Positions 15,801-51,918 of a stretch of DNA of 64,000 nt are shown here, piece by piece. This stretch comes from a virus, in IMG/VR virus record IMGVR_UViG_3300015371_000006, positions 32,001-96,000 of that record; one strand, 5' to 3'. Within the stretch, counting starts at the first letter, position 1. Every line of letters starts with the position of its first letter. The notes below the pieces were generated by a model that saw only the letters and a list, made by a program, of their open reading frames with translations, made no database searches and was not told the origin of the DNA. The translations under genes were made by a program, and so were the position numbers.

Positions 15801-18800
15801 CGGCGGCGTCCAGCGCGTCCTCGCGGCTCAGCGACGAGGAGGGGCTCGCCTGGCCTCCGGCGAAGCGACGCAGGTCGGGGTAGGTGGCGGCGAATTGCGC
15901 GTCGCTCATCGGCCGCCCACGCACGGAGCCCGTGCTGCCGACGGTCTGCGGGTCGCCCTCGTAGATGTACCAGCCGCGTCCGGCTCGCTGGGCGACGACG
16001 CGCCCGCCGGTCAGGCCGGGCTCGGGGCCGGGGCGGTCCCACACGTACTCGTCCAGCTTGCCGCCCCGTTCCTTGCGCACCTCCAGGCGGCCGCTGCCGG
16101 GGCTGCTTCCGGGGCTCCACTGGCCGGTCTTCTGGATCGCCAGCGCAGCTTCGACGGCCGGGCGCGGGACCATCTCCTCGTAGTCGAACTTCAGCATCAC
16201 GGCGTCGCCGTCATCCTCGTCGAGAGCGCTCTGCAGTTGCTCCTTCGTGAAGGCCCAGGCCAGCATCCCCGGCTCGTCGGTGTAGTCGTAGCTCGCCTGG
16301 TCGGTGCGGCCCTGCGGGATGAAGCGCTTGCCTGACTTGTCTGGCGCGGTCGCGCCCAGGCGCGCGTAGATCTCGGGCTTGCCGCCGCTGGCGGTCATGA
16401 ACGCTTCGCTCTCGCGCTTGCCGTCCTTGCCCACCCGGTACGCCTTGCCGTTGGTCGTGATCCCGCCGTAGCCGGAGTTGCCGTAGATCATGAAGCGGTT
16501 GCCGTCGTTGTCGACCGCAGCGGTGCCGTACTTGTCGGCCCAGCTCTGCGAGTCGGCGTTGATCAGCTTGTCCATCGAGCCCCACACGTAGCGGGCCTTG
16601 GAGGTGTCGCCCTCCCAGCCCTTCGTCCAGCCGAGCTTCTTCTTGCCCGTGCCGGGTGACGCCTGGCCGGGGCTGTGCTGACCGCCCATCGAGTCGGTGA
16701 AGCCGGGCGGCGGTTCGACTTCCTGATCGCTGGTCTCGACCTTGTCCAGCGGGACCACGAGCGTGCCGTGGTTGTCGGTCTTGACCCGCAGCTGGCCGAA
16801 CTTGTGGTCGACGACCTCGCCCTGGACGAGATCCTCCTGCCCGCCGATCCTCGCCACCTTCGTGGTGATGTTCGTGCCCACCGGGTAGGCGGCCCTCGCC
16901 GCTGCGTCGCGCTCCTCGCGGCTGAGCTTTCCGCCGGGGCTGGCCTGGCCCAGTGGCCCCGTGGTCACCGGCACCGAACCGCCCGCGTTCTTGAGCTGGC
17001 GCTTCTCGCCCTTGGTCAGCTCGCGCTTCTCGGCGACCCGACTGAGCAGCTGGGCGATCTGCTTGTCCCGCATCTCGGCGTTCGCCGAGGTCCGGCTGCG
17101 GATCTGGCGGATCGAGCGCTGGATCGACTCGTGCTCGGGCGTCCCACCGAGGGTCATCGTGGGGCTGCGCTGACCCAGCGGCGGCATGCTGCTCACGCCA
17201 CCGGACGCCAGCCTGCGGTTGTGAGCGCCCTTCGCCCGCGCGTAGTCGTTGGCCTGCTTGCGGGCGAGGTAGTCCTGGTCGTCGAGGACGGCTTCGGCGG
17301 CTCGGGGCGGGTCGTATCCCTCCCCGACCGAACCGTCGGCGTAGTGGACGTCCACCAGCCCGTCCTCGCGGGCCTTCACCCAGGTCAGGCCATAGCTCTG
17401 CTCCTCGCCGGGCCAGAGGTAGTCGAGGTCGCCGACGATCTCGTCCTTGCTCAGCGCCTCGCCGGGGCTGCGCTGGCCGCCGGGCTTCGCGTCGCGCAGC
17501 TTGACGATCAGGTCGAGATCCTCGGGGTCGATGATCGTCTTGTTGCGCAGTGACTTCGCCAGGTTGCCGAACACCCGGCGGGTGTTCTCCTTGTTGACGC
17601 CGTTCTTCGCCACGTCGGCGGCTAGGTTGCCGTCGGTCATCTTGATCATCGACACCACGTCGTCCATCTCGGCGTCGCTCATGTGCGTGTCGATTCGGCT
17701 GCGCTTCTTCGCCAGCTGCCGCAGCATGTCGTGGTCGCTGAGGCCGGGGCTCGCCTGGTAGCTGTCGGCGCGCATCTTCTCCAGCGCCGCGTCGTAGTCC
17801 AGCTTCGGCAGCTCGGGTGCCTTGCCGGTGGACGGGACGCGCTTGCGGCGTTCCAGGGCTCGCCGCTGCGGCGCGAGGGAGCGCACGGCAGCGTCGGCCT
17901 CCTCGGAGGGCGCGGCCTGCAAGCTCGGCGGGGAGAGCTGCAGCTTGTGGCCCGCGACCATCACCGACTTGCCGTCGGGGGTCACCTTGCCGCGCGAGCC
18001 GCCCAGGCTCACGCTGTCGCCGGGACGCAGCACGCGGCCGCGCCCCTCGGGGGCGAAGGTGCCGTCGGGCAGGCGGCGGATGCGGGCGATCCGGGCGGCC
18101 AGCTCGGAGGTCTTGCGCGCGGCTCCGCGCAGGCTCGCCTCCAGCAGCTCGCAGGCGGCTTCCTGCACGTCGATGTTCGGGTAGCGGCGCTTGACGGCGG
18201 CGCGGACCTTCTTCTTCTCGTCGGCCGATCCGTGCTGGCTTACGCGCGCGAGCGCGTTGCGCGCGTGGGCCTCGTCGTGGATCGGGTAGCGGCGGTCCGG
18301 CAGCGCGAAGTCGGAGTCGGGACGCTTCTTCCGAGCGGCGGCCGTCAGCGTGCCCTCCTCGACCTCCTTCTTGTTCGCGGCCGCCTTGGCCTTGAACTTC
18401 TCGTCGCGGGCCTTGCTCAGGGAGTGGCCGCACTTCTTGCAGTCGGCGTTGCGGGCGCTCTGCTCGGTGCCGCACTCGGGACACTTGACGCTCTGCTCGG
18501 TTGTCTCGTCGCCCTTGCCCTCCTTCTCGGCCTTCGTGTCAGCCTCGGCCAGGCTCTGGTCGCGCTGGGGGTTGCGGGCGTTGCGCTTCTTGCGGCGCTT
18601 GTTGCGCTCGGCATCGGTCAGCTTCGGCTCGGGGGTGGAGGTATCAGCCGCAGGCTTGTTTCCCAGCAGGCGCTTGCGCAGCTTGCGCTTGTCCTGCGGG
18701 GTGAGCGCGCCTGGCGTGACTTGAGCCGCCTCGCCGCCTGAAAGCAGCGCCGTAGCAGTCTGGTGACCCACGATCCCGTCGACCATTAGCCCGTTTTCGC

Positions 18801-20346
18801 GCTGGTATTGCCTGACCGCCTGTTGGAAGCCCTGGCCGCCGCCGCCCACCTTGTCGGCGATGGCCGATCCCAGGCCACCGGAGGCCGAGCGGATGAACTG
18901 GCCGCCGCCGGTCCGGCCCTTCGCGGCGCGCGGGTGCTTCTTTTCGAAGTCGCCTCCGGCCGACTGGCCGTCGCGGCCCTTCGGCTTCTTGCCGTAGTTC
19001 ATCCCCCAGCGCGTGGTCCCGAAGGGCGTCGTGATCGACTTCGTGCGGAACTCCTCCACGTCGGCGATGCTCTCCTCCAGCTTGTCGCCGTTCTTGCCGT
19101 GGCGCTTGAGCAGCGCCCACGTCTCCGGCCCGATGGCCCCGTCGGCCTTCAGCCCGTAGCGGCGCTGGATGCGCTTGACGCCCTTCTCGGTCTCCGGCCC
19201 GAAGCGCCCGTCCGGCCCGGCGTCGCCGACGTAGGTGCCCATCGCACCCATCGCCTCCTGGGCGGCCTTGACGGAGGGGTCGCCCTCGCCCTGTCCGACG
19301 CCCCGGCCCTTCGCCAGCCAGACGTTCGCGCTGGGCGTATCCGTGGGCGTATCCGTGGGCGTATCGTCGGCGTCCGCGTCGCCCTCGGGCTCGCTCGGGT
19401 TCGCCTCCTCATCAGGATTTCCCCCATTGGGGGAACCGGCGCGCAGCTTCTCCACGTCCTCGGGCGAGGTGCCGCGCATGGCGATCCGGGTCTTGTCGCC
19501 CAGCACGCCGTCGGGCTTCAGCTCGTGGTCGCCCTGAAAGCTCTCGACCGCGCCCTTGGTCTCCTCGCCGTACTCCCCGTCGACGCCGACGTCGTAGCCC
19601 AGCGTCTTCAGCCTGGCCTGGGCCTGGCCTACGAGTTCCCCGGACCCTCCCTGCTTGAGGGTCAGCCCGTCGCTATGTGCCTCGGTAGGGCGGCCTCGTG
19701 GGCTACGCGCTTTGACCTTGGACATGCGCCGCTCTGCATCAGCGACCGGGTCGTCCTTGGCCTCGCGTACCTCCCCGCCCAATTCCTTGGCGAGAGCACG
19801 AAGCTCGGTTGCCTCGGTCAGCAGCGCTCTCGCTGCCTGCGCCTGAGCGCGGGGTTCGGCCGGTGGGCCACCCATCTGCACGATCCGCACGGATTCGCTG
19901 AGCGGAGTTTCGATCAGCTCGGGGACGGCCTTGACCAGTCCCGCCTTGCCCGTTGTCCTCGGTTCGCTGAGCGGTCCCAGCGCGCCCTCGATGACGACCA
20001 GCCGCGCTTGCACCTCGCGCAGCACCCGCGCCGCCTCCTCGTCGCTGAGGATCAGGTCGGCGACCTCGGCCTCGGTCAGCTTCTTGCGCGAGTGCTTCAG
20101 TCGCCCCGGATCGAACTTGTCGAGCAGCACGGCGCAGCGGCGGTTCGCGTGATCCTTGCTGAGCCCGTGCTTGACCTGGTCGCGCACGCAGGACGTGAAC
20201 GGGTGCGGTTTCGCCAGGTAGTGCTTCGCCAGCGGCGCGATCTTCTTCGTGTCGCCAGGGGTTACGTCCGCCGTGCCGGGCTTGCTGAAGGTCTCCACCT
20301 CTTCGAGGTCACGCCTCTCGGGCGGCTGTTGCTGCGCCTCGGCCAC
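12823..20346 (-). CDS. giant modular (polyvalent) protein: 3 peptidoglycan-binding domains, Zn ribbon, DUF6582-like domain, 13 (G)QxSP motifs delimiting small modules
   Basis: PG_binding_1 signatures (VDGEYGEETKGAV..FQ...DGVLG; DGRFGPETEKGV..IQ...DGAIG; QYQRENGLMVDGIVG); CPECG..CKKCG; DSDFALPDRRYPIHDEAHARNALAR. Start placed at GTG 20346, 6 nt after TACGAT. Confidence 0.8.
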   Translation of the reverse strand: MAEAQQQPPERRDLEEVETFSKPGTADVTPGDTKKIAPLAKHYLAKPHPFTSCVRDQVKHGLSKDHANRRCAVLLDKFDPGRLKHSRKKLTEAEVADLILSDEEAARVLREVQARLVVIEGALGPLSEPRTTGKAGLVKAVPELIETPLSESVRIVQMGGPPAEPRAQAQAARALLTEATELRALAKELGGEVREAKDDPVADAERRMSKVKARSPRGRPTEAHSDGLTLKQGGSGELVGQAQARLKTLGYDVGVDGEYGEETKGAVESFQGDHELKPDGVLGDKTRIAMRGTSPEDVEKLRAGSPNGGNPDEEANPSEPEGDADADDTPTDTPTDTPSANVWLAKGRGVGQGEGDPSVKAAQEAMGAMGTYVGDAGPDGRFGPETEKGVKRIQRRYGLKADGAIGPETWALLKRHGKNGDKLEESIADVEEFRTKSITTPFGTTRWGMNYGKKPKGRDGQSAGGDFEKKHPRAAKGRTGGGQFIRSASGGLGSAIADKVGGGGQGFQQAVRQYQRENGLMVDGIVGHQTATALLSGGEAAQVTPGALTPQDKRKLRKRLLGNKPAADTSTPEPKLTDAERNKRRKKRNARNPQRDQSLAEADTKAEKEGKGDETTEQSVKCPECGTEQSARNADCKKCGHSLSKARDEKFKAKAAANKKEVEEGTLTAAARKKRPDSDFALPDRRYPIHDEAHARNALARVSQHGSADEKKKVRAAVKRRYPNIDVQEAACELLEASLRGAARKTSELAARIARIRRLPDGTFAPEGRGRVLRPGDSVSLGGSRGKVTPDGKSVMVAGHKLQLSPPSLQAAPSEEADAAVRSLAPQRRALERRKRVPSTGKAPELPKLDYDAALEKMRADSYQASPGLSDHDMLRQLAKKRSRIDTHMSDAEMDDVVSMIKMTDGNLAADVAKNGVNKENTRRVFGNLAKSLRNKTIIDPEDLDLIVKLRDAKPGGQRSPGEALSKDEIVGDLDYLWPGEEQSYGLTWVKAREDGLVDVHYADGSVGEGYDPPRAAEAVLDDQDYLARKQANDYARAKGAHNRRLASGGVSSMPPLGQRSPTMTLGGTPEHESIQRSIRQIRSRTSANAEMRDKQIAQLLSRVAEKRELTKGEKRQLKNAGGSVPVTTGPLGQASPGGKLSREERDAAARAAYPVGTNITTKVARIGGQEDLVQGEVVDHKFGQLRVKTDNHGTLVVPLDKVETSDQEVEPPPGFTDSMGGQHSPGQASPGTGKKKLGWTKGWEGDTSKARYVWGSMDKLINADSQSWADKYGTAAVDNDGNRFMIYGNSGYGGITTNGKAYRVGKDGKRESEAFMTASGGKPEIYARLGATAPDKSGKRFIPQGRTDQASYDYTDEPGMLAWAFTKEQLQSALDEDDGDAVMLKFDYEEMVPRPAVEAALAIQKTGQWSPGSSPGSGRLEVRKERGGKLDEYVWDRPGPEPGLTGGRVVAQRAGRGWYIYEGDPQTVGSTGSVRGRPMSDAQFAATYPDLRRFAGGQASPSSSLSREDALDAAEKLAVGDEVAVAPNAVIARDDEHSYVITDLEGTFVFGDAKTPDDVAELHDELANEAARDEAVDREIDDRKMGQRSPAMKVVDPKAAQSREKLQADLKAKHFPKADEVNVNEAQGVVEVWKDGRAQLYRLPGQQSPGYPGFLAGGAKAQAAANKADAARAKRQEAEGTGIWAKANPWPDPMKLPDAVDEGVGLGVHPLAKGTGVIFGKDGQASPKLWETEIAKVEAQGKDADGEFIDDLAGDVQSDWFPVVAEHDDYRAQEYVDLLQRLEDALDTVHGNPKGTSRGLYSDEDRFDNEIADAAADMLDPNYGQYSPGLAVGTQYEVTLLKNGAELDRFGETQLNSGAKLERTPDGINISSGGVTGRVQTFPVNAVMLADALDRSPPDVSAVLLPAWDEYANGSDKKASAKVLSELGGLKLGQASPGSVPDGFTPNTSSTELGEVPVGTKFIHDGYGYVVHKANGNWVIAKPIDPSTGEILTSDPAPSKYQGEKRRIFHYRMPPGAFGDMHPDYSDEWSVTPAAPLPVNPESPVRSAKGNIRNVKAMNDGKLKNLWADMSPYAHADPDGYAAVQTEMESRGFTTGAPAPVAAPVSASAPEPAPKPTPAPVAAQTAGNDDDLYDLLKKSVASVGAKSGDPAGDAPPASYIEPGAKADAADKALYDAPDLGMFSPEGNLAVDRMVKAIVNAEPGEREMMLKGTMDIISSDHPEVNDTAVRDEIATALKAEGVPLSDVGWIDLTLDKGGPTPSGEDPLAGLGDQPKPGTTPDFTPGEPEPGDDQKVSPAYSAKGNLRNIPKMSDAKLAGLADQMVGYEDKDPWAAQQVNNELEARGMDSVLADAKAAKIEAKAFADHGEPPAEEPTPTAAPNMSDRVATLNDAEPGHTETLPNGTQIVKTKSTYLVVKPTPGESYDSPEVYKDAKAAVDRADEWDAEPEVTEADQRLADAAQSLGPDWNAAAVQSALAQLATQGIDLDPAVENADTLVAVIKAAGLKP

Positions 20347-20374
20347 GTCGTCATCGTAACCGCGCCCTGGGCGG

Positions 20375-20584
20375 CTACCCCGGTTGGACTTCGATCCGTA
20401 GCGGCGTGTTGCCCGGTGCGGTGACGTGGATGATCCGGCGGCGGTGCTCGGTGCGGACCTCGCTGATCTTGATATCGGGGTCGGCGACCAGCGCCTGCTC
20501 GACGCCACTGAAGCCCCGGTTCAGCCGCTCGCGCGTGTCAGGCGGCGACGAGGAGGTCTTCGTCTCGGGCGTCGATGAGTCCAT
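20375..20584 (-). CDS. hypothetical protein
   Basis: Short ORF in the operon. Confidence 0.45.
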   Translation of the reverse strand: MDSSTPETKTSSSPPDTRERLNRGFSGVEQALVADPDIKISEVRTEHRRRIIHVTAPGNTPLRIEVQPG

Positions 20585-32939: not shown

Positions 32940-33137
32940 CCGTCCATTGTGAACCCCGCGCAAGCGGGAGGGCGATTCAGACCACGGAGACGATGCCCTG
33001 GTGGCGGCGTTGCCACCAGCGCGCGCCCGCGCGCGTGAGCGCGAGGTGCGCGATCTCCTCGCCATAGGCGGTCGGCATCACCACCCGCCAGCGCCAGGGT
33101 CTCGGGTCGCCGCAGCAGGTGCGCTCGACCCGGCCCT

Positions 33138-33541: not shown

Positions 33542-36500
33542 CTAACGGGGCTTGACGACGGCGTCGACCACGGTCGCCCCGTCGATGAGCTTGCTGCCGG
33601 TGATGCGAATCGACGTGCGCCGGGGCAGCACCACGCGGCCGGGCGTCGGATCGGTGACGGTGTCGAGCGTCGAGGGCATCAGCGCGTGCGCTCCGGTCGG
33701 GACCGTGAGCCGCAGGGTGACCACGCCGGGCGTCGGCGCGTACTGCGTCTCGGCGTTGAGGTAGCTCTTCTCGGTCATCCACTTCCCGGCCAGCTCGCCT
33801 GCGTTGTCGGCGTTGATCTTGCTGTCGGCGGGCAGCGGGACGTAGGCGTAGAAGTCCTCGTCGACTCGGGTCACCCTGTCGCCCAGCAGGGCGTCCAGCT
33901 GCGCCACGGTGCCCTGCGTCTCGGCGTCGGCGGCCGCGCGCTTGGCCCCGGAGCGCAGGTGGGCGTCCACCACGTCGTGGCCCTGGCCCAGGTAGTGCTC
34001 CATCGCTGCGTCCTCCTCGGGGTAGGTCTCCAGCGATGCGTCGCGCGCGCTGAATTCGTCGAGCACCTCCTCGCCGCTCAGCGGCTCGGGGATCTCCTCC
34101 TCGCCTCGGCTGTAGCGCCCCAACCAGGCGACTCGGGCCTTGAGGTTCTCGCGGACGCGCTCGCGCATCTCCTCATCGTCGAACGGGGCCGCGTCCACCA
34201 GCGCGTCGATGCGCTCGGGGGTCAGACGCAGCTCGGCGTCCTTGGCGGCGGCCCGCATCCCCTCCTCGGTGATCGCCATCCGCGTCCACGCCTGCCCGCC
34301 AGGCTTGTTCATCGTCCACAGCTCGGTCGGCACCGGCCCGAACGGCTTCGGCCCGCCCATCGCCCGGTACTCCAGGGTGCCGCCCTGGTCGAGTCGGATC
34401 GGGGTGTCGCCGTTCCACAGCACGTTGTCCTGCGCCAGGCCGACCACGTCCCAGTTGCCCAGCAGCGCGTCGGCGACGAAGCCGTCGGCCAGCGTTTCAT
34501 CGGCGTGTTGCCACTGGCGCTCCTCGCCGTCCACGAGCGGGTAGGTCAGCGCGCGGGTCTTGCCGAACTTCGGCACGTTCACCTCGGTGTAGCCCGCGTT
34601 CGGGACGGTGATCCCCAGCTCGCGGTAGATCGAGTTCGCCAGCAGCTCGGTTGCCACGCGGTCGCGGTTGCCCTTGTACGTCTTCACCAGCCAGCGGCGG
34701 CCCTCGGCGTCCTCGGCCATCCGCGCCCCGTTCGACCCTCCTGCGGGCTTGACGTCCTTGAGCTTCGTGGCGGTGTAGTCGGGGATGCCCTGCACCGGCT
34801 CGGGCGGGGCTTCCATCTCGGAGCGCTCGACCTCTTCGGTGCGCTCGGGCTTGCCGCCGTCCCAGCTCGCCTGCATCTTCGCCAGGAACGCCTTCATCCC
34901 CGGCAGCTCAGGTGGGCTGGCCTGGCCTACTCCTCCGGCTTCTCCTCCGGCTTCTCCTCCGGCTCCGGGTCCGACTCGTAGCGCAGCGTCTCCCCCTCCA
35001 GGTACTCCGCTGCGTCCGGCGGGAGATCCGGGGCTGGCGGCGGCTGCTCCTTCGGGTCCATCGAGGCCCATCCTACCCTGCGCCAGGAAGCCGTCCATCT
35101 TCTCGGCGTCGAGAATCTTCAGCTCGCCGCCCACATCCTTGTCGGCGATCAGCTTCGCGGGCTCGCCGCGCGGCACGTCGGTGTCCCACACCCGCAGCCG
35201 CAGCCAGGGGAGTTCGTCGTCGTACTCGGTGAAGCGCTGGGGCACGCTGCGGTAGGCGTTGTCGACGATGTGGTCGGGCACGGTGCGGCCGCTGCGCTCG
35301 GCGCGCTCGGCCACGCGGACCTTGCCCTTTTCGTGGGGGAGGTGGGCGACGTCGACCTCCACGTCGTAGCCGTCGGCGTGCGCCTGCTCCAGCTTCTCGC
35401 GGAAGCGCCCCGCGCCGGAGTTGCCGACGCCGTCGATCAGCACGTCGAGGCCCCGGTTGAAGGCTCGCGCGCGCAGCGTCCGGGCGATGATCGAGGACTC
35501 CTCATGCACGCCCGCGCCGCTGTAGGGGTCGCGCGCTTCGATCATCGCCTGGTACTCGGGCAGCTTCTCCTTGATCGCGTCGGGGTTGACCTCGACCATG
35601 CCGGTGGCCTCGGCGCTCAGCATCGAGGACTTGCCCGAGCCCGGTCCGCCTGCGGTGAACGCCGCGCGCGGCTTGCGGCCCGAGGGTGGTTCGTGGCCTT
35701 CCAAGAAGCTGTTGATGATCTCCTCGTGCAGCGCCCGGCGCTCGTCGGCGTAGACCCGGCCGGTCGGGGTCATGCGCGACCACTTCGCCTCGGTGTCGAC
35801 GGCCTCGCCCAGCACCTCATTGGCCGTCGGCCCCTTCTCCACCTGCAGCCGATCCTCGGGGCGCTCGGCGGGGCTGGCCTGGCCCATCATCACCGAGCTG
35901 AGCGCATCCCAGGCGTTGGCTGCCAGCTGCTCCTCTGAGGCCGCGTCGGCGTCACGGATCGCCTCCAGGGCGCGCACCTCCTCTTCGTCTCGCAGCGTCG
36001 TGATCGCCGGTTCGACCTCCTCGCGGCTCAGCCCGTCAACCGAACCCACGTCGCGCTTGACCGCGTAGGTGCGCGTGCCGTCGCGGTCGCGGGTGACGCT
36101 TACCTCGCTGCCGTCGCTCAGGGTGATCGTCGATGCGTCGGGCTGACCGGGGTAGAAGTCCAGCTCGTCGAGGTTCCTGCGGTCGCGGTCGCTCAGCGGC
36201 CTGCGGCCGAAGCCGGTCGGGCGGGGGCGGTCCAGTGCGCCCCGCCAGGCGGCGAGCGCAGGCATCGGCCCCGCTGCTCCGAGGGTCTGCACGCGCTGGG
36301 CATAGGGATTCCACGCCACATGGCGCGACAGGTGCAGGCCGGGGCTGGCCTGCCCGCCTTGCGCCTCCAGGGATTCGCGGTCGAGCAGCAGCTCGTTCTC
36401 GCCCGCCAGCTTGCCCAGCCACAGCGCCTTGGTCCCGGCGGGCACCGTGACCTCCTGAACGTCGCCGAATCGCTCGGCATCAGCCTTTCGCGTGCTGGTG

Positions 36501-39500
36501 CTCACGAACGGCCCGCGCAGCTTGCCGTCGTCGGCCCCGCCTCGGTAGACCGTGACCGCCTCGGGGAGCGCCCTCATCGCCCTGCGCAGCATCTTGACCT
36601 GCGGCCCCAGCTTGTACTCGCGGTCGAGCGAGGGGTCGTAGAGGATCTCGTCGGGATCGTCCGACTCTTGGAACGGCGTGCTGTCAACGATGTACAGCTC
36701 AGCCGCGTTCTGTTGGCGCGGTCCCAGCTCGGGCGCATTCGCGTCGAGCATCTCCTCAGCCGCCTTACCCTTCAGTCCGGGGCTGGCCTGGCCAGTCGCC
36801 TTACTGATTGCGGCCTTCACCAGCGAGTCGTCGAGCGCCCGGCGCTCCTCCGGCGTGCGGTCGGGGTCGTCGTCGGCGTGCTGATCCATCGCGTCGGCGA
36901 TCAGCGCCTCCAGGTCGGCGGTGTCCTCGCCGGGCTCGACCCAGCCGTTGAGCATCGACTTCGTCAGCTCGTCCTGCACGGCCTGGCGCTGCTCAGGGGT
37001 CAGCTGGTCGAGGCCGGGGCTGGCCTGGCCTGCCATCGCGCGCAGGCGCGGGTCGTCTGACTGGGACAGGTACTCCTGCTTGCGGGCCTGCAGCGAGTCG
37101 GCGATCTCGCTGCCCACCGGCTCGCCGTCGCGGGTGTAGCGGGCCTGGTGGCCGTAGTACGCCTGCGACCAGTTGTAGCCGTCGGTAAGCCGGTAGCCGT
37201 GGTCGATGACCTTGCCCTTGTTCTGCGCCTCCAGCTCGCGCATCAGCTGGGTGGCGATGCCCCGGCGCTGGAACTCGGGGATGACCTCGATCTTGTCGAT
37301 GCCGATGTCGGCGTTGGCCTCGCGCGCTTTCTTGCCGATGGCGGGCCGGTAGCGGCTGTAGGTCAGCTTGCCCACCTCCCTGCCGTCTACCTCGGCCACC
37401 AGGCCGTCGAAGTATTCGGTGTCGCCTCGCTTGCGCGGCTTGATCTCGGCGGGGCTCAGCTGGCCCGACTTGACCGCGTCGTCTACCTGGGGGTTCCAGG
37501 CGTCCAGGGTTGCGGGCGGACTCGCCTGCCCCAGCGCGAGCTTCGTGTCCGGCATCAGGCCCTTGCCTGCGGGCTGGGCGACACCGGAGCGCACGGCGAT
37601 GCCGTAGCTCTCGGCGTTGCTCATCCGGTTCGTGGTCGCGTAGCGCTTCCGTGAGCCGTCGGGGCGTTCGATCAGCACGCTGTCGCCGCGCTTGCCTCGG
37701 GTGATCGTCGAGCCATCGGCGGCCTGCAGGCTGTCGCCTCGCTGCAGCGCTCGGACCTTGCGGATCAGCGCCCGGCGCGGGTCGGAGTAGTTGTGCGGGT
37801 CGAAGCTGCCGGGCTCGATGTCGAGCGCCTCGGCGTTCGGCTCGGCGATCCCCATCTCCTTCATCGTCCGCTTGACGAAGACGCGGTCCTTCTCCTTCTC
37901 GGCTTCGGGCAGGTCGGCGTAGGGCTTCAGCAGCTCCGGCTGGTCGGCCTTCGCCCAGCTCTGGTTGCGGTCGATCCAGGCGTCGTGCACCTCGGAGGCC
38001 AGCCGCTCCATGTCGAGCGCACCCTCCTCATCGCGCATCCGGGTGATCGCGTCGTAGGCCGACGCCGCGCCGTCGCGGTTCTCGGCTTGGAACTTCTCGG
38101 GCAGCTCGTCGTAGGTCATGTCGGCGATGTCGATGGTCCCGCCCCCATAGGGCTTGGGCCGGGGCTCGTAGTTGCGGTCCTTGCGCCACTGTTCGTGGGC
38201 CTGTGCCGCGACCCTCTCTACGACCTTGTCTCGCTGCATGGCAGCGCCTGTGAGCGGTTGTTCGGGCGCGCCCTCTGCACCCTGCCCCTCCGGGGCGTCG
38301 CCGCCTCTGGCGCGCTTACGGCTCTCCGCTCCAGGGCGGGCTCGGGACACGTCGAGGACGCTCGACTCGCGCAGCAGCACCATCTCGCCGTCCTCGGTGA
38401 GCGCCTCGGCCTTCCAGCCCAGCGCGTCGTCGTCCTCGACCTTGCGCAGCTCGGCCACGGTGATGTCGCCGTTGTTCTGCTTGATCCGCACCACATCGCC
38501 CTCCGCGACCGGGCCGGTGATGTTGTTGCCCTTCAGGTTGCGCCGGGGCGGATCGGCCAGGAACTCCACGTCGTCGGGGTCGGGGTAGCGGGTGACGGTG
38601 TCCACGATCTGGCCGTTGTGGTCGCGCAGCTTGACCTCGACCTCGGCGTACCAGCGCCCGTCCTCGCCCACCATCGCGTCGGTGACCACGCCCTCCCAGG
38701 GCTCCTTGCGCCCCGTCACGCGCACGCGCGCGCCCGCGCGGATGCGCATGCGGTGGTCGGTGTAGTTGGGCTGGCGCAGCACCTCCGCTCCGGCGGCCCC
38801 CGGCCCGGCGAAGTGCTCGACCGTCCTCGCCATCAGGTCGCGCGCTCGCGCCTCGCCCTTCTCGGGGGTGACGCCCTGCGCGCCTGCCAGCAGCCCGCCG
38901 AGGATCTCGAAACGCTTCTCGGGGTCGGCGCTGAAGGCCAGGTTGTGCAGCAGCTCGCGGCGGTTCTCCAGCGGGACGTGGGCTTCGTCGAGCAGGAGCC
39001 CGAGCGCTGCGCGCTGGGGCAGGTAGGTGCCCTGGGCTCGGATGTCGTCGGGCTTGCGGCCCAGCCAGCGCAGGACGTCGTGCTGTCCGTTGCGCTTCAG
39101 CAACTCGACCGCCCACTCGTGAGCCATCTCCTCGGTCAGCGCCTCGTCGAGGCTGAAGTGCTCCGGCTGGGCGAAGGTCTCGGGGTTGATCGGGTTGACG
39201 CCGTGGGAGGCCTCGTGCATCGCCGTGCGGTAGGCGTTGTAGACGCCCGCTGCGGTGTCGTCGTCGAGCCGCCGCTTCTCCACGCGGGCGGCGTGGGCGG
39301 CCTGCAGGTGCACCTGGGCGGCCCGGCCGACTTGCACCTCGCCGTCCCAGCTGCGAAAGCCGCCCGTGTCCTCGTCGGCTTCGTTGATGCGGATCGACTT
39401 CAGCACCACCTGGCGGCCGTGCGTGTCGCCGATTTGCTGTGCAAGCCCGGCCACTCCGGCGGCAAGACCGGAGAAGTCCTCTGGTGCGCCAGCCTTCTGG

Positions 39501-40705
39501 GCCGCCATATTGCCTGCAAAGGGCACAGGAACTGGAGAAGACGTCGGGCCCCCGGCTCCATCCGGCACATCCGGCACATCCGGCGTCCCAGCAGGCATCC
39601 CGCCGGGTGCCGCCTGGCCCCCGACCTGCGTGGTGACCCTTGCTGGGATCGGGTCCGACCCGCGCTGCGCGAGCTTCGGCGCGTCCGTGCCGTGCAGGAA
39701 CCGGAGCACGTCGTTGAGGCTGATCCTCGGCGCAAAACCCCCGCGTCTTGGGCGGAAACGGCCGCCCCACACCGTGCCCTTGGCGAACCGCTCGTCCCAG
39801 GCGACCTCCTCCATGTCGAGCACGAGGTCTGCGGGTGGGACATCGGTGCCCTCGGGCTGGGACATACCGCCGGACATATCCCCAGTCAGAGACACGAGAA
39901 AGTCACCATTTGCAGGGGTTTCGCCGTTCGAGCTGAGGGACATCTCCAGGGACATCTCGGTGACACGTTCGGCCAGTAGGGCCTCTTGCAGCAGGCCGTA
40001 TCGCTCAGCGATCTGCTGGGCGCGCCGGTCGGCCGCCTCGGTGTCGGGAGCCTCGGCTCCCATCAGCCCCATGTCGTATGCCTCGTCGTGCGTGAGCAGC
40101 TCGCAGCGGCAGCCCGTGTGCGTCGGCGGGTTGATCCGGTCGAGCACGCTCCAGGGCCACCAGCCGACCGTCGCCATCGCCAGGCAGTCCGGGGTGTGCT
40201 CCTTGACCGCTTCGCTGAGGTGCCAGAACGCGCCCTCGGGGCTCAGCCTGCGGACCATGCCCCTGCGCGCGGTCGCCTGCACGCGAGCGGCCGCCGCCTC
40301 GTGGTGTGCCTCGGTGAACCGCCGCTCGCGCTCCAGCACCCGCTTGACCGCCGCCTCGGGTTCGTCGCGCTGCAGGGCCGCCGGGATGTCGCGGCGCATC
40401 CGCTCCTCCATGCGCCGGTAGAACTCGACGTCGCGCTCCTGCTCGACCCGCGCGGCCTCGGCCAGCTCGGCATCGCTCACGTCGGCGCGTGCGAACTCCG
40501 GTCGGATCGCCTTGACGATCCAGTCCGCGCCCTTGCTGCGCCGCCTCAGCGCCGCGACGGCCGCCCCGATGGCGGCCCCGGCCTGTCCCGAGGCCACCTC
40601 GCCCCCAGCAGCGTCGTCGTCGCCGGAGGCTGCGATGACGCCCCCCGCTGCGGCCGCCGCCAGGATCGCCTCGGTGTTGTCGTCCTGCTTCGCGCGCGTC
40701 GGCAT
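33542..40705 (-). CDS. MuF (minor head protein)-fused polyvalent effector protein: zincin, SH3-like, RyR, GNAT, ART, zeta toxin, HipA/PI-kinase-like, degenerate ART
   Basis: PPTHTGCRC (MuF); HEASH...DEALTE; AHEQW/VHDAW...PYADLPEAEKEKDR; VIPEFQRRGIATQL; VYRG/FVSTS/GENE; GGPGSGKS; GGSN..LVK..E...DALLGNWD...N...LDQGG. Confidence 0.85.
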   Translation of the reverse strand: MPTRAKQDDNTEAILAAAAAGGVIAASGDDDAAGGEVASGQAGAAIGAAVAALRRRSKGADWIVKAIRPEFARADVSDAELAEAARVEQERDVEFYRRMEERMRRDIPAALQRDEPEAAVKRVLERERRFTEAHHEAAAARVQATARRGMVRRLSPEGAFWHLSEAVKEHTPDCLAMATVGWWPWSVLDRINPPTHTGCRCELLTHDEAYDMGLMGAEAPDTEAADRRAQQIAERYGLLQEALLAERVTEMSLEMSLSSNGETPANGDFLVSLTGDMSGGMSQPEGTDVPPADLVLDMEEVAWDERFAKGTVWGGRFRPRRGGFAPRISLNDVLRFLHGTDAPKLAQRGSDPIPARVTTQVGGQAAPGGMPAGTPDVPDVPDGAGGPTSSPVPVPFAGNMAAQKAGAPEDFSGLAAGVAGLAQQIGDTHGRQVVLKSIRINEADEDTGGFRSWDGEVQVGRAAQVHLQAAHAARVEKRRLDDDTAAGVYNAYRTAMHEASHGVNPINPETFAQPEHFSLDEALTEEMAHEWAVELLKRNGQHDVLRWLGRKPDDIRAQGTYLPQRAALGLLLDEAHVPLENRRELLHNLAFSADPEKRFEILGGLLAGAQGVTPEKGEARARDLMARTVEHFAGPGAAGAEVLRQPNYTDHRMRIRAGARVRVTGRKEPWEGVVTDAMVGEDGRWYAEVEVKLRDHNGQIVDTVTRYPDPDDVEFLADPPRRNLKGNNITGPVAEGDVVRIKQNNGDITVAELRKVEDDDALGWKAEALTEDGEMVLLRESSVLDVSRARPGAESRKRARGGDAPEGQGAEGAPEQPLTGAAMQRDKVVERVAAQAHEQWRKDRNYEPRPKPYGGGTIDIADMTYDELPEKFQAENRDGAASAYDAITRMRDEEGALDMERLASEVHDAWIDRNQSWAKADQPELLKPYADLPEAEKEKDRVFVKRTMKEMGIAEPNAEALDIEPGSFDPHNYSDPRRALIRKVRALQRGDSLQAADGSTITRGKRGDSVLIERPDGSRKRYATTNRMSNAESYGIAVRSGVAQPAGKGLMPDTKLALGQASPPATLDAWNPQVDDAVKSGQLSPAEIKPRKRGDTEYFDGLVAEVDGREVGKLTYSRYRPAIGKKAREANADIGIDKIEVIPEFQRRGIATQLMRELEAQNKGKVIDHGYRLTDGYNWSQAYYGHQARYTRDGEPVGSEIADSLQARKQEYLSQSDDPRLRAMAGQASPGLDQLTPEQRQAVQDELTKSMLNGWVEPGEDTADLEALIADAMDQHADDDPDRTPEERRALDDSLVKAAISKATGQASPGLKGKAAEEMLDANAPELGPRQQNAAELYIVDSTPFQESDDPDEILYDPSLDREYKLGPQVKMLRRAMRALPEAVTVYRGGADDGKLRGPFVSTSTRKADAERFGDVQEVTVPAGTKALWLGKLAGENELLLDRESLEAQGGQASPGLHLSRHVAWNPYAQRVQTLGAAGPMPALAAWRGALDRPRPTGFGRRPLSDRDRRNLDELDFYPGQPDASTITLSDGSEVSVTRDRDGTRTYAVKRDVGSVDGLSREEVEPAITTLRDEEEVRALEAIRDADAASEEQLAANAWDALSSVMMGQASPAERPEDRLQVEKGPTANEVLGEAVDTEAKWSRMTPTGRVYADERRALHEEIINSFLEGHEPPSGRKPRAAFTAGGPGSGKSSMLSAEATGMVEVNPDAIKEKLPEYQAMIEARDPYSGAGVHEESSIIARTLRARAFNRGLDVLIDGVGNSGAGRFREKLEQAHADGYDVEVDVAHLPHEKGKVRVAERAERSGRTVPDHIVDNAYRSVPQRFTEYDDELPWLRLRVWDTDVPRGEPAKLIADKDVGGELKILDAEKMDGFLAQGRMGLDGPEGAAAASPGSPAGRSGVPGGGDAALRVGPGAGGEAGGEAGGVGQASPPELPGMKAFLAKMQASWDGGKPERTEEVERSEMEAPPEPVQGIPDYTATKLKDVKPAGGSNGARMAEDAEGRRWLVKTYKGNRDRVATELLANSIYRELGITVPNAGYTEVNVPKFGKTRALTYPLVDGEERQWQHADETLADGFVADALLGNWDVVGLAQDNVLWNGDTPIRLDQGGTLEYRAMGGPKPFGPVPTELWTMNKPGGQAWTRMAITEEGMRAAAKDAELRLTPERIDALVDAAPFDDEEMRERVRENLKARVAWLGRYSRGEEEIPEPLSGEEVLDEFSARDASLETYPEEDAAMEHYLGQGHDVVDAHLRSGAKRAAADAETQGTVAQLDALLGDRVTRVDEDFYAYVPLPADSKINADNAGELAGKWMTEKSYLNAETQYAPTPGVVTLRLTVPTGAHALMPSTLDTVTDPTPGRVVLPRRTSIRITGSKLIDGATVVDAVVKPR
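34927..35061 (-). CDS. nested out-of-frame 44-aa acidic peptide (candidate zeta-domain antitoxin)
   Basis: MDPKEQPPPAPDLPPDAAEYLEGETLRYESDPEPEEKPEEKPEE*; 41/44 codons end in G/C, versus 18/45 in the host frame; TAGGAT 8 nt upstream. Confidence 0.65.
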   Translation of the reverse strand: MDPKEQPPPAPDLPPDAAEYLEGETLRYESDPEPEEKPEEKPEE

Positions 40706-40813
40706 GCCCAACGAGTCTAAGCCCGAAAGCGGCGAGCGGCCCAGGTCGCCCTGGACCGCCCTCCCAGCGCCGCTCGATTGCCTTTCTTCGCCGCCGGGTG
40801 CCGCTCTCCTGCC

Positions 40814-45722: not shown

Positions 45723-47729
45723 TCATTGGCCCAGCTCCCTGATCGGCTTCGTGATGTCGTCGAAGTCGTCGGCGGCCCGTTTCGCCTGCTCGCGCACACG
45801 GCGCTGGGCCTCCTCGGTGCGCAGGCGGTCGACCATCTGCTCCTCCAGGTCCGACAGGGCCTGCTCGCGCGTGACGTAGCGGCTCTCGGTTGGCCCGTAG
45901 GGGTTGGCCTCCGGCGTCGAGGCCGCCATCGGCGCGCCGTAGGGGTTGGCCTCGCCCTGCGGGGCCCCGCCGTTGCCGTTGATGGTGATCCCTGGCGGGA
46001 GCTGCTCCTGGGGCTGTTGCTGTTGCTGCAGCGCTTCCATCGCCGGGTCGGTGTAGCCGGGCGGGAACACCTTCTCGGTGACCTCGGCCGGGTCGCTCAT
46101 CTCCAGGCCCTCGCCGATGGCGATGCTGAACAGCGTCCGGGTCAGCTCGATGTTGGTCCCGTTCGGGTCGAAGGTGCGCGCCACGGTGGCGACGCTGTTC
46201 ACCAGCTCGGTCATCATCCGCCGCAGCGGGCTCGGCAGGGAGAAGTCGTAGCTGAGATCGCGCTTGCGCTCGTCCTCGGGCACCTCCTCGGGGATCTCGC
46301 CGTCCTCGTCGGTCGGGTCGGGCGCGCCCAGCTCGGCCTGGGTGTCGGCCTTCGGCGGCGTCGGCACGGCGGGGGCGTCCTCGGTGCCCTCCTGCTCGCG
46401 GTCCTCCTGGCGCTCTGCCCACTCCTCGTAGCTCAGCTCCTCGGTCAGCCGCCCGGCCTCCAGGGCCTCGTGGATCACCTGGTCGCAGAACCAGCGGAAC
46501 ATCTGCTCGAAGACCTCTTGGCGCGATTCGACCGCCTTCAGCACGGGCAGCTCCATCGAGGTGGCCGTCGCCAGGTTCGCCGAGCCGATGTCGCCGAGGT
46601 AGTGCTGGGGGAAGTGCGTCGCGGCGCTGATCTGCGAGCGGATCATCTGCCCGTCCACGTTCGCGCCGGTCGCCCCGCTGTCCAGCTTGAAGCTCTCGTG
46701 CTCGACCTGCTCGTTCTCGGTGATGATCGAGCCGCCGCTCGGCCCAGCGACCACGGAGGTGTCGGAGTCCACGGTCCGCCCCAGCTCGCCTCGGGTGCTC
46801 AGCGCCTGGTTGGCCATCTTGCGGATCTGGTTCGGCGTGCCCTTGACCTTGCGCTTCATGATGAACGCGGCGGCTGCCTTCGCGGCATCCACGCGGGCCT
46901 CCATCAGCGAGTTGAAGGCGTTGGCCCAGCGCAGCACCCGGTGCATGGTCGGGTGCCCGAAGGCCATCTCGGAGGTCTTGTTGACGGCGACGTGGTAGAC
47001 GCGGCCCTTGCCGGTCTTGTTCGCCGGGGGCTTGAGCCCGCCCTTCTCGTTGTTCCAGTGCTGGTAGTAGAGGATGCGCTGGCCGCGCTCGGGCGCGTCG
47101 TAGAGCAGCTGGGGGCCGTCCTTTTGGAAGTCCCACTTCATCTGCTTGCGGCGGCTGACGTAGTAGAGGACGCGCAGGCGGTTGTCGGGATCGCGGACGA
47201 CGTTCTCGACGCTGTCGTGCTCCAGCATCCCGAGCTTGACCTTGCCGTCGTCGCCCGTGAACTTCAGCAGGAAGATGTTGCTCTGCAGGGTGATGTCGGT
47301 CCCGAGCGCGAGCTGCGCCGGGTAGCTGGTCAGCGCCAGCTGGTTGTCCTCGTCGTCCCAGGCTTCGTCGAGGATCTCCTGCACCTTCTCGTCGCGGGCC
47401 TTCGGACGCGGGACGCCCCGGCCCAGGCAGAAGTCGTTCATCAGGTCGGTGGCCGCGCCGAGCTGCGCGTCCTGTTGCCAGGCTACCCGCGCTTGCTGCA
47501 CCAGCGCCCGGCGCTTGACCGCCTGCAGATCCTGCTCGGAGCCGCCCTCGTAGTCCAGCAGGGTCCAGCCGATCAGGTCGAGCTGTTGGCGCAGCACTCG
47601 CCGGTCCTCGACCATCGCCTCCATGACGTCGAGTTCGTCGGCGTCGACGGTCGTCTCGCCCCGGTTGCTCAGGCGCGTGCGCGCCCAGCGGTCGAGGAAG
47701 CCCTCGCGCTTCTCGTCGTCCTCAGCCAC
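45723..47729 (-). CDS. phage portal protein
   Basis: FCLGRGV..PK...VQEILDEAWDD..N...FPQHYLGD...ANLATATSMELP...RQ; same strand as, and downstream of, terminase. Confidence 0.8.
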   Translation of the reverse strand: MAEDDEKREGFLDRWARTRLSNRGETTVDADELDVMEAMVEDRRVLRQQLDLIGWTLLDYEGGSEQDLQAVKRRALVQQARVAWQQDAQLGAATDLMNDFCLGRGVPRPKARDEKVQEILDEAWDDEDNQLALTSYPAQLALGTDITLQSNIFLLKFTGDDGKVKLGMLEHDSVENVVRDPDNRLRVLYYVSRRKQMKWDFQKDGPQLLYDAPERGQRILYYQHWNNEKGGLKPPANKTGKGRVYHVAVNKTSEMAFGHPTMHRVLRWANAFNSLMEARVDAAKAAAAFIMKRKVKGTPNQIRKMANQALSTRGELGRTVDSDTSVVAGPSGGSIITENEQVEHESFKLDSGATGANVDGQMIRSQISAATHFPQHYLGDIGSANLATATSMELPVLKAVESRQEVFEQMFRWFCDQVIHEALEAGRLTEELSYEEWAERQEDREQEGTEDAPAVPTPPKADTQAELGAPDPTDEDGEIPEEVPEDERKRDLSYDFSLPSPLRRMMTELVNSVATVARTFDPNGTNIELTRTLFSIAIGEGLEMSDPAEVTEKVFPPGYTDPAMEALQQQQQPQEQLPPGITINGNGGAPQGEANPYGAPMAASTPEANPYGPTESRYVTREQALSDLEEQMVDRLRTEEAQRRVREQAKRAADDFDDITKPIRELGQ

Positions 47730-48114
47730 TCTTCGCCTTCGCCTTCGACTTGGACTTGGACTTCGGCTCGGGCTCCTCGTCGCCGTCACCGTTCGTGCCC
47801 TGCTCGCCCTTGCGCGCTGCATCGCGCAGGATCGCGGCCGCCTCGCGGTAGGCCATCTGCGCCTTGTTGGAGTTCGGCATCCCCGACGTGCGGGCCAGCG
47901 CTTGGTCGAGCATGTCGGCCGAGGTCTCCAGCAGCACTGAGCGGCCGTTCGTGGCGGCGTGCTCGTCCTCTGCCTCGGCTCTGCCCTCTTCGCGGCCCCG
48001 CTCGTAGTTGCGCTTCAGTAGGTCGCGGACCTCCTTGGCGGTGTCGCGCGTGTCGCCCCCCTTGATCGCAATCCGGCGGGCATCAGCCGCCAGCCGTCGT
48101 CGGTTGTCAGCCAT
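47722..48114 (-). CDS. hypothetical protein
   Basis: Overlaps the portal start. Confidence 0.6.
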   Translation of the reverse strand: MADNRRRLAADARRIAIKGGDTRDTAKEVRDLLKRNYERGREEGRAEAEDEHAATNGRSVLLETSADMLDQALARTSGMPNSNKAQMAYREAAAILRDAARKGEQGTNGDGDEEPEPKSKSKSKAKAKSG

Positions 48115-50193: not shown

Positions 50194-51918
50194 TCACTGG
50201 TCGAATCCGGGCTCGTAGACGTCCACCTTGCTCTCCAGCTGCACGGTGCCCCGGTCCAGCTCCGTGCGTTCGAAGTCGTACATCTCTTCGAAGCTCATCG
50301 TCTCGCCCTGCTCCAGCTCGTTGACGCCGGTCTGCCAGAGGAAGACCTCTTTGGCGAGCATGTCGTAGACCTCGGCCATCGCGTGGTCGAACGGCTGCCC
50401 GCCGTTGACGTACTCGACCTTCATCTGGCCCTTCTCGTTCTCCTCCTGCACGCGCGTGAGCGCCTGTAGCTGCTCGACGTAGTCGGTCGGCCGGGTCTCC
50501 GGGCTCGGCAGCAGGTTGCGTTGCTGGCGGATCGCGTCGAAGGTCGCGTCGATGGCGGGGGTCCGCTGCACGCTCACGGCCCGCATCTCCGGCTCGACCT
50601 TCATCACCTCGTTGTGCGTCCCGAAGCGGGCGAGGTAGATGCGGCCGGGGAAGCGCTCGGCCAGCTGGCGGGCCAGGCGGCCTTCGGGCAGGTGGTCGAT
50701 GCAGAGGATGTTCACGGAGTAGCGGTCCATCAGCTCGCCGACCTGGCCGAAGCTCTCGACCTCGCCGACGAACAGCGGCGTCTTGTACGGGTCGCCGCCG
50801 CCCTTGCGCTTGGGCTCGTGGTGCAGGCTGATCCGCACGTTCAGGTTGCGCGTCGTGGCGACGTCGACGCCTCCGGTGACCAGCGAGCCGCCGCTGTAGG
50901 GGTCGGCGATAGCGGGGAGGTCGCGGGTGGCCGCTTCGATTGCAGCATCGGTCAGGCGGCCCTCTGCCGGTGCCCACGCCTCGGCGAGATCCTTGTTGAA
51001 GTGGACCTGGCGCTCGTAGGCGTTCGTCTTGTAGTGCGCCGCGACGATGGTCGGGATGTCGGCGTGCGCCACGATCAGGCGGGGCATGTGGTACCCGCGC
51101 ACCAGCCGGTCGGGGTGCTTTGCCACCCACTCGCCGCCCAGCACATCGAGGGGCTTCCGGCACTTCGTGCAGACCAGGTGGGCGTCGGGCCACTCGTCGT
51201 TGACCGGCGTGCCCTCCTCGATGTTCGCGTAGCTCGGCGTTTGCTGCTCGCCGCAGCGCTCGCACTTGACCATCCAGAAGCGCTGGTCGGTGCGGTTGAA
51301 GGCGCGGTCGATCCCGTAGCCGGGGATGGAGGGGACGCCGACCCGTCGGGTCTTGCCGTCCAGCGACCCGGAGATCCGGCGCTCGGCGTCAGGGATGTTC
51401 TCCTGGCGCAGCGTGTCGTACTCATCCAGCGCGAGGATGTCGGCCGGGACCGCATCGAGGTCGTGCTTTGACTCGCTCCCGCGCGCGTAGAGGTGGCCGC
51501 GCCCGATCTTCTTCAGGCCCTTGTTGTTCACGTCGCCGACGGGGATGCGCTTGCTCAGGTACGGGCTCGCCAGGATCGCCGCCTTCACCCGCGCGTCGGA
51601 GAAGTCGTACATCTGCTGGCGCTTCGGGAACACGTAGAGGCTGTCGGTCGCGCGCACGTCGCAGTGCCACATGACCCAGCGCAGCAGGTAGGTGCTGACG
51701 CCGACCTGGGTGGCCTTCTTGACCACGGCCTCCTTCGCCATCGCTCCCGGCGTGTCGTACAGCTCGCGTTGGAACGGGTAGCGGTTGAAGTCCAGCTTGC
51801 CGGTCTTCGGCTCGGGCACCAGCAGGGACCATTCGAAGAAGCTGATGATCATCCCCGCGCGGTGCTCGCGACGTCGGTTGACGCTCTCCATGAACGCGCT
51901 GCCGGGGGTTGCCGTCAC
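50194..51918 (-). CDS. terL: terminase large subunit (lambda GpA-type)
   Basis: YPFQRE; KKATQVGVST (GpA Walker A variant); ILALDEYD (Walker B); CERCG/CTKC Zn motif; GGVDV nuclease; DHAMA. Confidence 0.9.
   Translation of the reverse strand: MTATPGSAFMESVNRRREHRAGMIISFFEWSLLVPEPKTGKLDFNRYPFQRELYDTPGAMAKEAVVKKATQVGVSTYLLRWVMWHCDVRATDSLYVFPKRQQMYDFSDARVKAAILASPYLSKRIPVGDVNNKGLKKIGRGHLYARGSESKHDLDAVPADILALDEYDTLRQENIPDAERRISGSLDGKTRRVGVPSIPGYGIDRAFNRTDQRFWMVKCERCGEQQTPSYANIEEGTPVNDEWPDAHLVCTKCRKPLDVLGGEWVAKHPDRLVRGYHMPRLIVAHADIPTIVAAHYKTNAYERQVHFNKDLAEAWAPAEGRLTDAAIEAATRDLPAIADPYSGGSLVTGGVDVATTRNLNVRISLHHEPKRKGGGDPYKTPLFVGEVESFGQVGELMDRYSVNILCIDHLPEGRLARQLAERFPGRIYLARFGTHNEVMKVEPEMRAVSVQRTPAIDATFDAIRQQRNLLPSPETRPTDYVEQLQALTRVQEENEKGQMKVEYVNGGQPFDHAMAEVYDMLAKEVFLWQTGVNELEQGETMSFEEMYDFERTELDRGTVQLESKVDVYEPGFDQ

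Follow-up and report, generated by a model that had tools for sequence, protein, structure and literature searches.

A 2,387-residue phage protein with constant ends and a shuffled middle of linker-bounded enzyme cassettes

Results

A giant gene of the head module

The stretch of DNA analysed here (the window, 64,000 nucleotides) corresponds to bases 32001-96000 of the IMG/VR virus record IMGVR_UViG_3300015371_000006 (111,596 bases, linear, 89% complete) and has a G+C content of 70%. On its minus strand, a single open reading frame (ORF) extends over positions 33542-40711 and comprises 2,389 codons counted from a TTG at 40711, the count followed by the residue numbers below; from the ATG at 40705 it encodes a form of 2,387 amino acids (aa) and 255 kDa, identical to an entry of the protein database (P0002). 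A preliminary description of the window, made from the letters alone, had placed one gene for a head protein with at least five candidate enzymatic domains at 33542-40705. A single real gene of the head module was borne out, as the content of G+C at third codon positions (GC3) is 0.91, in line with the real genes of the window, and as portal and terminase genes lie upstream. Each of the ten units that it named found support, the MuF-like one by profile-profile comparison and the RyR-like one below threshold. That at least five of them are candidate enzymes likewise stood: judged by intact catalytic motifs, a zincin metallopeptidase, a GNAT acetyltransferase, an ADP-ribosyltransferase (ART), a zeta-type kinase and an atypical kinase are apparently working, and one further enzyme fold is apparently dead. 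The features of the gene are as follows.

33542..40705, minus strand: whole gene for the 2,387-aa polyvalent protein (ATG start; frame open from TTG 40711)
40067..40534, minus strand: probable divergent MuF-like domain, residues ~60-215 (hhalign; invariant columns)
39722..39799, minus strand: conserved Gly/Arg motif at residues 305-330, reading AKGTVWGGRFRPRRGGF (modelled with low confidence)
38816..39514, minus strand: predicted gluzincin-type metallopeptidase, residues ~400-632 (model confidence, fold match and motif)
38333..38752, minus strand: two small beta-barrels of the tandem Tudor/SH3/KOW-like type, residues 654-722 and 724-793 (model)
37853..38098, minus strand: probable RyR-like helical stretch, residues ~872-953 (sub-threshold Pfam match, low model confidence)
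37580..37813, minus strand: family-conserved segment, residues 967-1044, end of the constant N-terminal unit (sequence conservation)
34913..37531, minus strand: G-Q-A-S-P linker in six copies (Q at residues 1062, 1229, 1308, 1454, 1611 and 1930)
37028..37531, minus strand: cassette 1, GNAT acetyltransferase, residues 1061-1228
36791..37027, minus strand: cassette 2, linker-bounded acidic helical module of 79 aa
36353..36790, minus strand: cassette 3, ADP-ribosyltransferase (ART1) with intact triad
35882..36352, minus strand: cassette 4, module of 157 aa
34925..35881, minus strand: cassette 5, P-loop kinase of the zeta-toxin type and a Gly-rich tail after it
34088..34783, minus strand: predicted atypical protein-kinase-like domain, residues 1977-2208 (model, structural matches, conserved motifs)
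33545..34087, minus strand: C3/VIP2-like ART fold, residues 2209-2389, catalytic motifs degenerate (model, alignment)

Constant ends and a shuffled middle

Across the family of giant relatives, ~1,060 aa at the N-terminus and 460 aa at the C-terminus of the protein are constant, and the middle is made of shuffled cassettes. The full-length query matched twelve proteins of 1,300-3,400 aa, and many of the 150 best matches to the C-terminal kinase module share further parts with the 2,387-aa protein. In relatives of 2,300-5,300 aa, the constant portions correspond to residues about 60-800, 967-1044 and 1927-2389, whereas the middle differs from one relative to another and may hold Nudix, LigT-like, zeta, GNAT or ART domains. 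The family thus departs from polymorphic toxins, in which it is the C-terminal tip that varies.

The domains of the middle part were identified with Pfam, run on the whole protein and on ten separate segments. Cassette 1 matched the acetyltransferase model PF00583 with 25.5-30.8 bits (cut-off 20.7); as a segment alone it also exceeded the cut-off of PF13508, and it carries the sequence QRRGIAT at residues 1148-1154. Cassette 3 retains the complete ART triad of R1390, S1404-T-S1406 and E1438-N-E1440 (VYRG/FVSTS/ENE at 1388-1440) and is 41% identical to the matching module of the relative P0028; its match to PF03496 (ADPrib_exo_Tox) is borderline, with 24.5 bits versus 23.4 in the whole protein and 21.3 bits for the segment alone. 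For the zeta domain of cassette 5, PF06414 gave E-values from 1e-22 (whole protein) to 8e-24 (segment). This domain contains the Walker A motif GGPGSGKS at residues 1688-1695, including K1694, and its D1711 aligned to the Asp of DNDTFK in the zeta toxin 1gvn, which we take to be the catalytic D67. All three enzymes had been named in the preliminary description, and the motifs it listed (PPTHTGCRC, HEASH, GGPGSGKS and VYRG/FVSTS/ENE) were found where it had put them.

The two remaining cassettes are of less obvious kinship. No relatives of the 79-aa module were found in Pfam and NCBIfam scans, and the 157-aa module was without a match in Pfam, NCBIfam or the ESM Atlas; the latter shares 57% identity with a module of the relative P0003 that likewise lies between linkers. 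A sequence search of the PDB returned nothing for the stretch from GNAT to ART1 or for the C-terminal 460 aa. An internal repeat seemed to link residues 967-1044 to the 157-aa cassette, both containing STIT...DG.R.YA, but was rejected, its local score lying at z = 0.6 relative to shuffles.

Within the Gly-rich tail that follows the zeta domain, GC3 falls to 0.47 in frame versus about 0.9 in the +1 frame (residues 1876-1920). The +1 frame, at window positions 34927-35075 of the minus strand (residues ~1876-1929), encodes an acidic peptide of 44 codons that ends with a TAG just before the last GQASP. A hidden ORF was considered and not adopted. The in-frame tail has a counterpart in the tail of P0024, with which it aligns, and no relatives of the +1 peptide were found. 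Milder GC3 dips of the same kind occur in two other low-confidence linkers. We take the dip to reflect either low complexity or a frameshift that is compensated, and not a demonstrated hidden gene.

A recurring pentapeptide at all cassette borders

All cassette borders carry the pentapeptide G-Q-A-S-P. The Gly codons of the six linkers start at 37531, 37030, 36793, 36355, 35884 and 34927, and one additional G-Q-L-S-P starts at 37465. The seven occurrences of G-Q-x-S-P in the 2,387-aa protein compare with 0.023 expected, and none of 20,000 shuffles reached seven. A second giant protein of the same phage, of 2,561 aa, contains 12 G-Q-x-S-P and one Y-Q-A-S-P. Beyond these two giants, a six-frame search of the rest of the 111.6-kb record produced three matches to G-Q-x-S-P only, irrespective of coding status.

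Relatives carry variants of the linker: GMASP occurs 13 times in P0003, GQASP 15 times in the 5,304-aa P0028, MATPT eight times in P0017 and GEKGD 10 times in L101, and GLASP is found in P0014. The modules that are homologous between the 2,387-aa protein and P0003 are bracketed by linkers in both, in a different order. In the related phage genome G001, the coding pattern for M-A-S-P was counted 28 times on the coding strand versus none in a reversed control. Eighteen sites fall in a 3,794-aa orthologue of the 2,561-aa protein, eight in the MuF giant, and four in the N-terminus of the orthologue of a 1,665-aa protein that is encoded next to the giant gene in the window. For a second genome, G002, GEKG[DG] was found 15 times on one strand and not at all in the control.

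The linker is thus fixed within a phage, common to its unrelated giants and rewritten between phages, and for this reason looks like a protease site; G-Q-A-S-P is most likely a processing signal, as far as its distribution in the sequences can tell, and the built-in zincin is the obvious candidate protease. At the nucleotide level, the sameness of the linkers exceeds what the peptide requires. In the G-Q-x-S-P sites of both giants, Ser is encoded by AGY in 18/19 cases (background about 0.47) and Pro by CCC in 15/19, and most M-A-S-P sites of G001 read ATGGCATCGCC.

The constant N-terminal unit

A structural model of the N-terminal ~1,060 residues, built with 46 relatives, is confident at residues 50-240, 400-640 and 650-800 and poor elsewhere. 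The first of these regions corresponds to the MuF domain of the preliminary description. The motif PPTHTGCRC lies at residues 195-203 (40103-40129), and H172/C176 together with H198/C201/C203 are invariant in the family. Aligned by hhalign to five true PF04233 domains, the N-terminal family of 61 sequences scored a probability of 92% (E 6e-7, 122 columns) over the whole domain, ending on the C-terminal H-x-G-C-x-C motif. One relative, P0055, matches PF04233 at E 1e-3, and in P0012 and P0013 true PF04233 MuF domains run directly into the same kinase module. The hidden Markov model of the family did not match P0012 or P0013, and a search started from true MuF domains, iterated over five rounds, did not reach the 2,387-aa protein in any of them. 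The MuF assignment therefore stands at the profile-profile level and not as a direct Pfam or NCBIfam match: the protein probably bears a divergent MuF domain, the weakest of our domain calls.

Residues ~400-632, modelled with a predicted local distance difference test score (pLDDT) above 90, are assigned as a gluzincin-type metallopeptidase on the strength of a moderate fold score combined with a complete motif. Residues 389-632 align with the catalytic domains of M1-type zinc aminopeptidases (1z1w, Z 8.4, 192 residues aligned, plus several others). The HEASH motif occupies residues 499-503 (39203-39217), with E523 downstream; the spacing of 20 residues from the second His to this Glu is, we take it, that of thermolysin. 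In an alignment of 10 sequences, H499, E500, H503, E523 and E527 are invariant. The zincin is conserved in the chain of about 45 of the 150 top relatives, including all giants found by the full-length query. The two barrels that follow match KOW, Tudor and Sm folds with Z 7-8 and a root-mean-square deviation (rmsd) of about 2, and as a pair resemble tandem Tudor/Agenet domains (Foldseek probability 0.96-1.0). The zincin and the two SH3-like units announced in the preliminary description were thereby recovered.

Its RyR-like domain fared less clearly. PF02026 (RyR) scores 23.5 bits, under the cut-off of 27.4, and RyR structures in the PDB were matched weakly but consistently (E 0.0025-0.3: 6uhi at E 0.0025, as well as 6uag, 3nrt and 4n05). 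We consider an RyR-like domain at residues ~872-953 probable from these matches. The constant unit closes with residues 967-1044, which are 45-65% identical in most relatives and 39-41% identical in two, and for which the model has a pLDDT below 50.

Searches with larger parts of the unit were less productive. Proteins of 456-1,453 aa included no relative of the N-terminal 830 aa, and a single query of IMG/VR with this part returned no close relative. A search of BFVD for folds similar to the 1,060-residue model was uninformative (best E 3e-4), its matches being a mix of SprT-like and KOW proteins with one MuF-like capsid protein at probability 0.47.

Between the MuF-like domain and the zincin lies a Gly/Arg motif common to the 2,387-aa protein (AKGTVWGGRFRPRRGGF) and the 2,561-aa protein (HPRAAKGRTGGGQF, about 18880-18936, minus strand); in the former it resembles the HPR..KG..GG.F of the second giant. 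The form HPRxxKGxxxGGxF was seen in 9 other kinase-module proteins, and others contain as many as four copies of a related word, LHPRGRGG. The motif may be a targeting or binding peptide.

The constant C-terminal kinase and ART-fold module

A HMMER search with the C-terminal 460 residues against 1.84 billion cluster representatives retrieved 3,656 relatives (cut-off E <= 1e-3), the majority of which sit inside proteins of 800-5,300 aa. The AlphaFold2 model of residues 1930-2389, based on an alignment of 41 relatives, reached a pLDDT of 91.6 and a predicted template modelling score of 0.85.

Residues 1977-2208 (model residues 48-279), to which no Pfam model matches, adopt a protein-kinase-like fold in the model. 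Their best structural matches are Helicobacter pylori CtkA (Z 14.3, rmsd 3.6, 202 residues aligned), Bacillus CotH (13.8) and PI4KII-alpha (13.7), followed by Fam20C (12.1), MavQ (11.9) and HipA (11.8); match lengths are about 190-215 residues over the range of Z 11.8-14.3. This agrees with the HipA/PI3-4-kinase-like domain of the preliminary description. Sequence identity to CtkA, CotH, PI4KII and HipA is 11-18%. The match places the domain in a fold group rather than in any single family, and unlike these proteins the kinase here is fused to an ART fold. Conserved positions comprise the Gly-rich loop at 1991-1995 (G1991/G1992/G1995), K2010, E2022, D2088, D2095-N2096 and D2108-Q-G-G. As the family keeps the Gly-rich loop and the Lys, Glu and Asp/Asn motifs, the modelled kinase looks active.

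Residues 2209-2389 (model residues 280-460) superimpose on VIP2 (Z 20.8, rmsd 2.2, 178 residues aligned) and on C3 exoenzymes (Z about 20; 20.2), and Foldseek returned the ART fold at E 1e-9. Relatives of this part match PF03496 at 1e-10. The positions of the catalytic Arg, Ser-Thr-Ser and Glu-x-Glu read YAYV, AET and PGR, and some relatives retain YRG/STS/xE. With all three catalytic motifs lost, the domain should not be counted as an activity: the second ART of the preliminary description holds as a fold and not as an enzyme, and is probably a pseudo-enzyme.

The combined module is noteworthy in that it is widespread, yet in cultured phages either unannotated or labelled only as an ADP-ribosyltransferase. 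In the Actinomycetia phage DSL-LC01 (OQ999401.1, 52800-62669; our L081) it lies in an unannotated 3,289-aa protein encoded three genes downstream of the portal gene, and in Pseudomonas phage Dolphis (our L080) in the 1,222-aa gp117, labelled only ADP-ribosyltransferase.

Genomic setting

The large terminase, the portal and the 2,387-aa protein are encoded in this order on the same strand, together with a second giant.

50194..51918, minus strand: large terminase gene, upstream (phrog_675, E 2e-86; PF05876)
45723..47822, minus strand: portal gene, upstream (phrog_10963, E 2e-28)
12823..20508, minus strand: second giant protein, 2,561 aa, with three PG_binding_1 domains and the linkers given above

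The 1,665-aa ORF directly downstream of the gene (28068-33065, minus strand) belongs to no Pfam or PHROG family and had no match among cultured phages. In related IMG/VR phages it is kept after the MuF giant at 29-36% identity, and its G001 orthologue has an additional N-terminal part of ~430 aa that holds the four MASP linkers. Related phages have a portal-sized ORF of ~710 aa, then a giant and then a homologue of the 1,665-aa neighbour, the homologue being shown for L002, L006 and L008. At the DNA level the phage has no close cultured relative, and tblastn matches are confined to single domains. Pfam detected neither an HK97-type capsid (PF05065) nor an S78 prohead protease anywhere in the 111.6-kb record, and the main head genes of the phage thus go unrecognised. 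A 1,229-aa ORF at window positions 3847-7536 (minus strand), with ~18 copies of the short repeat SSATLALTA, is probably a fibre-like tail protein.

Discussion

Polyvalent proteins have been described as chains of 2-15 unrelated domains that occur in phages and conjugative elements and are thought to be injected early (Iyer et al. 2017, J Bacteriol, PMC5512222). Zincin metallopeptidase, ART and MuF domains are hubs of their domain network, fusions with GNAT and zeta-like kinases are recorded, and autoproteolytic processing by the zincin domains has been predicted (PMC5512222). The gene described here is an additional, unusually complete member of this class, with which it shares the many unrelated enzymatic domains per chain (a peptidase, an acetyltransferase, an ART and two kinases) and the location among virion genes, large terminase and portal lying upstream. 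The preliminary description had found the protein unusual beside MuF toxins, and these do carry one C-terminal toxin (PMC5576092); the proper reference class, however, is that of the polyvalent proteins, for which a multi-pronged payload, also suggested in the preliminary description, is the published inference (PMC5512222). Such a payload would be consistent with the place of the gene near the portal gene.

The protein differs from the published class in several respects. Whereas PMC5512222 names no processing site or linker, and our literature search found none for polyvalent proteins, a pentapeptide stands here at all cassette borders and is rewritten between phages. The RyR domain is absent from the text of PMC5512222, and a probable RyR-like stretch is found here. 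The polyvalent kinase of PMC5512222, which lacks a C-terminal subdomain and occurs mainly in phages of Verrucomicrobia-Chlamydia and Bacteroidetes, can be set beside the kinase of the present protein by description. What the present analysis adds is the combination of constant ends with a shuffled middle, plus the recurring border linker.

We consider it likely that the gene encodes a virion-associated polyvalent protein with constant ends and linker-bounded enzyme cassettes, which is probably processed and delivered and whose packaging, cutting, ejection and targets we infer. The most likely role of the N-terminal unit would be to anchor the chain within the head, close to the portal, and to provide a protease. 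Along the chain would then follow GNAT, the 79-aa acidic module, the R-S-ExE ART, the 157-aa module and the zeta-type kinase, and at its end the CtkA/CotH-like atypical kinase fused to the apparently dead C3-like ART fold. The linkers would serve as processing sites at the cassette borders, the chain would be cut into domain-sized pieces, and these pieces, leaving the capsid along with the DNA, would modify targets in the host at an early stage of infection. A likeness at the level of the system is offered by phage T4, in which Alt is an ADP-ribosyltransferase packaged in the head and injected with the DNA, and in which the prohead protease trims head proteins at a short, recurrent motif. Alt and the internal proteins of T4 are separate gene products, versus one polyprotein here.

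Beyond this, we tentatively propose a polyprotein system in which a five-residue signal that differs between phages (in this phage and its close relatives G-[Q/M/L/K]-A-[S/T]-P; GEKGD or RSEGI elsewhere) would be cut by a protease of the phage, the built-in zincin being the likeliest one. Several different giant virion proteins of one phage would carry this signal, which would co-evolve with the protease, and its DNA would act as the joint for cassette exchange; we hold this specific version with clearly less assurance than virion association and delivery as such.

Several observations weigh against processing and delivery. PF04233 is silent at E <= 10 in the protein and in the whole genome, as are the NCBIfam/TIGR models, and ~5 kb of small ORFs separate the portal gene from the giant gene. 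The 2,561-aa protein has no HExxH motif, so that it would need to be cut in trans; the failure to detect an S78 prohead protease or an HK97-type capsid also bears on which protease would be responsible. The narrow choice of Ser codons hints at copying at the DNA level, and the linker may thus also, or only, be a recombination joint. Finally, the virion RNA polymerase of phage N4, a zincin-bearing polyvalent protein, is packaged uncut (PMC5512222).

Part of this evidence would also fit an intact multi-enzyme chain, in which G-Q-A-S-P forms uncut flexible spacers and its DNA provides the short homology for swapping cassettes between phages. The unprocessed N4 polymerase (PMC5512222), the narrow codons of the motif and the cassettes shared with P0003, which differ in order and are always linker-bounded, all speak for such a chain. 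Neither a spacer nor a joint, however, needs a fixed pentapeptide that varies at one position (Q, M, L or K) and keeps A-S/T-P, nor would the same peptide be needed in unrelated giants of one phage, and the conservation of the zincin in about 45 of the 150 top relatives, all giants from the full-length query among them, is likewise at odds with it. We therefore regard an uncut chain as unlikely, though less so than the two explanations that follow. Temperate phages encode MuF polymorphic toxins with a single variable C-terminal toxin and an immunity gene (Jamet et al. 2017, BMC Biol, PMC5576092), and the present protein shares with them an MuF-type N-terminal domain bearing toxin-like enzymatic domains. 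A classical toxin of this family, released against competing bacteria with immunity conferred by a neighbouring gene, would suit the MuF-like N-terminus, the toxin-type zeta kinase and the ART. The protein differs, however, in having five or six enzymes instead of one, and in that its variable part is the middle, the C-terminal 460 aa being constant across relatives. In the 476 bp that separate the giant gene from the next one, the conserved 1,665-aa neighbour, no high-GC3 ORF is found, and hence no obvious immunity gene. This explanation appears highly improbable to us. We give just as little credence to an enzyme complex that acts late and inside the cell, without ever being packaged, and that modifies, for example, phage or host components during assembly: it would accommodate the weak MuF homology, but the gene lies within the terminase-portal block, its relatives directly follow a portal-sized ORF, and the typical MuF domains of P0012 and P0013 are fused directly to the same kinase module. 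A packaged polyvalent protein that is processed and delivered thus remains our preferred explanation.

Polyvalent proteins are supposed to be the first weapons fired into the cell, and almost none of them has been studied experimentally. The arrangement described here bears on how a chain of ~250 kDa fits into a capsid and becomes active, and the recurring linker makes the published idea of autoproteolytic processing directly testable. If the proposed signal is what it appears to be, it would constitute the first defined processing code for polyvalent proteins.

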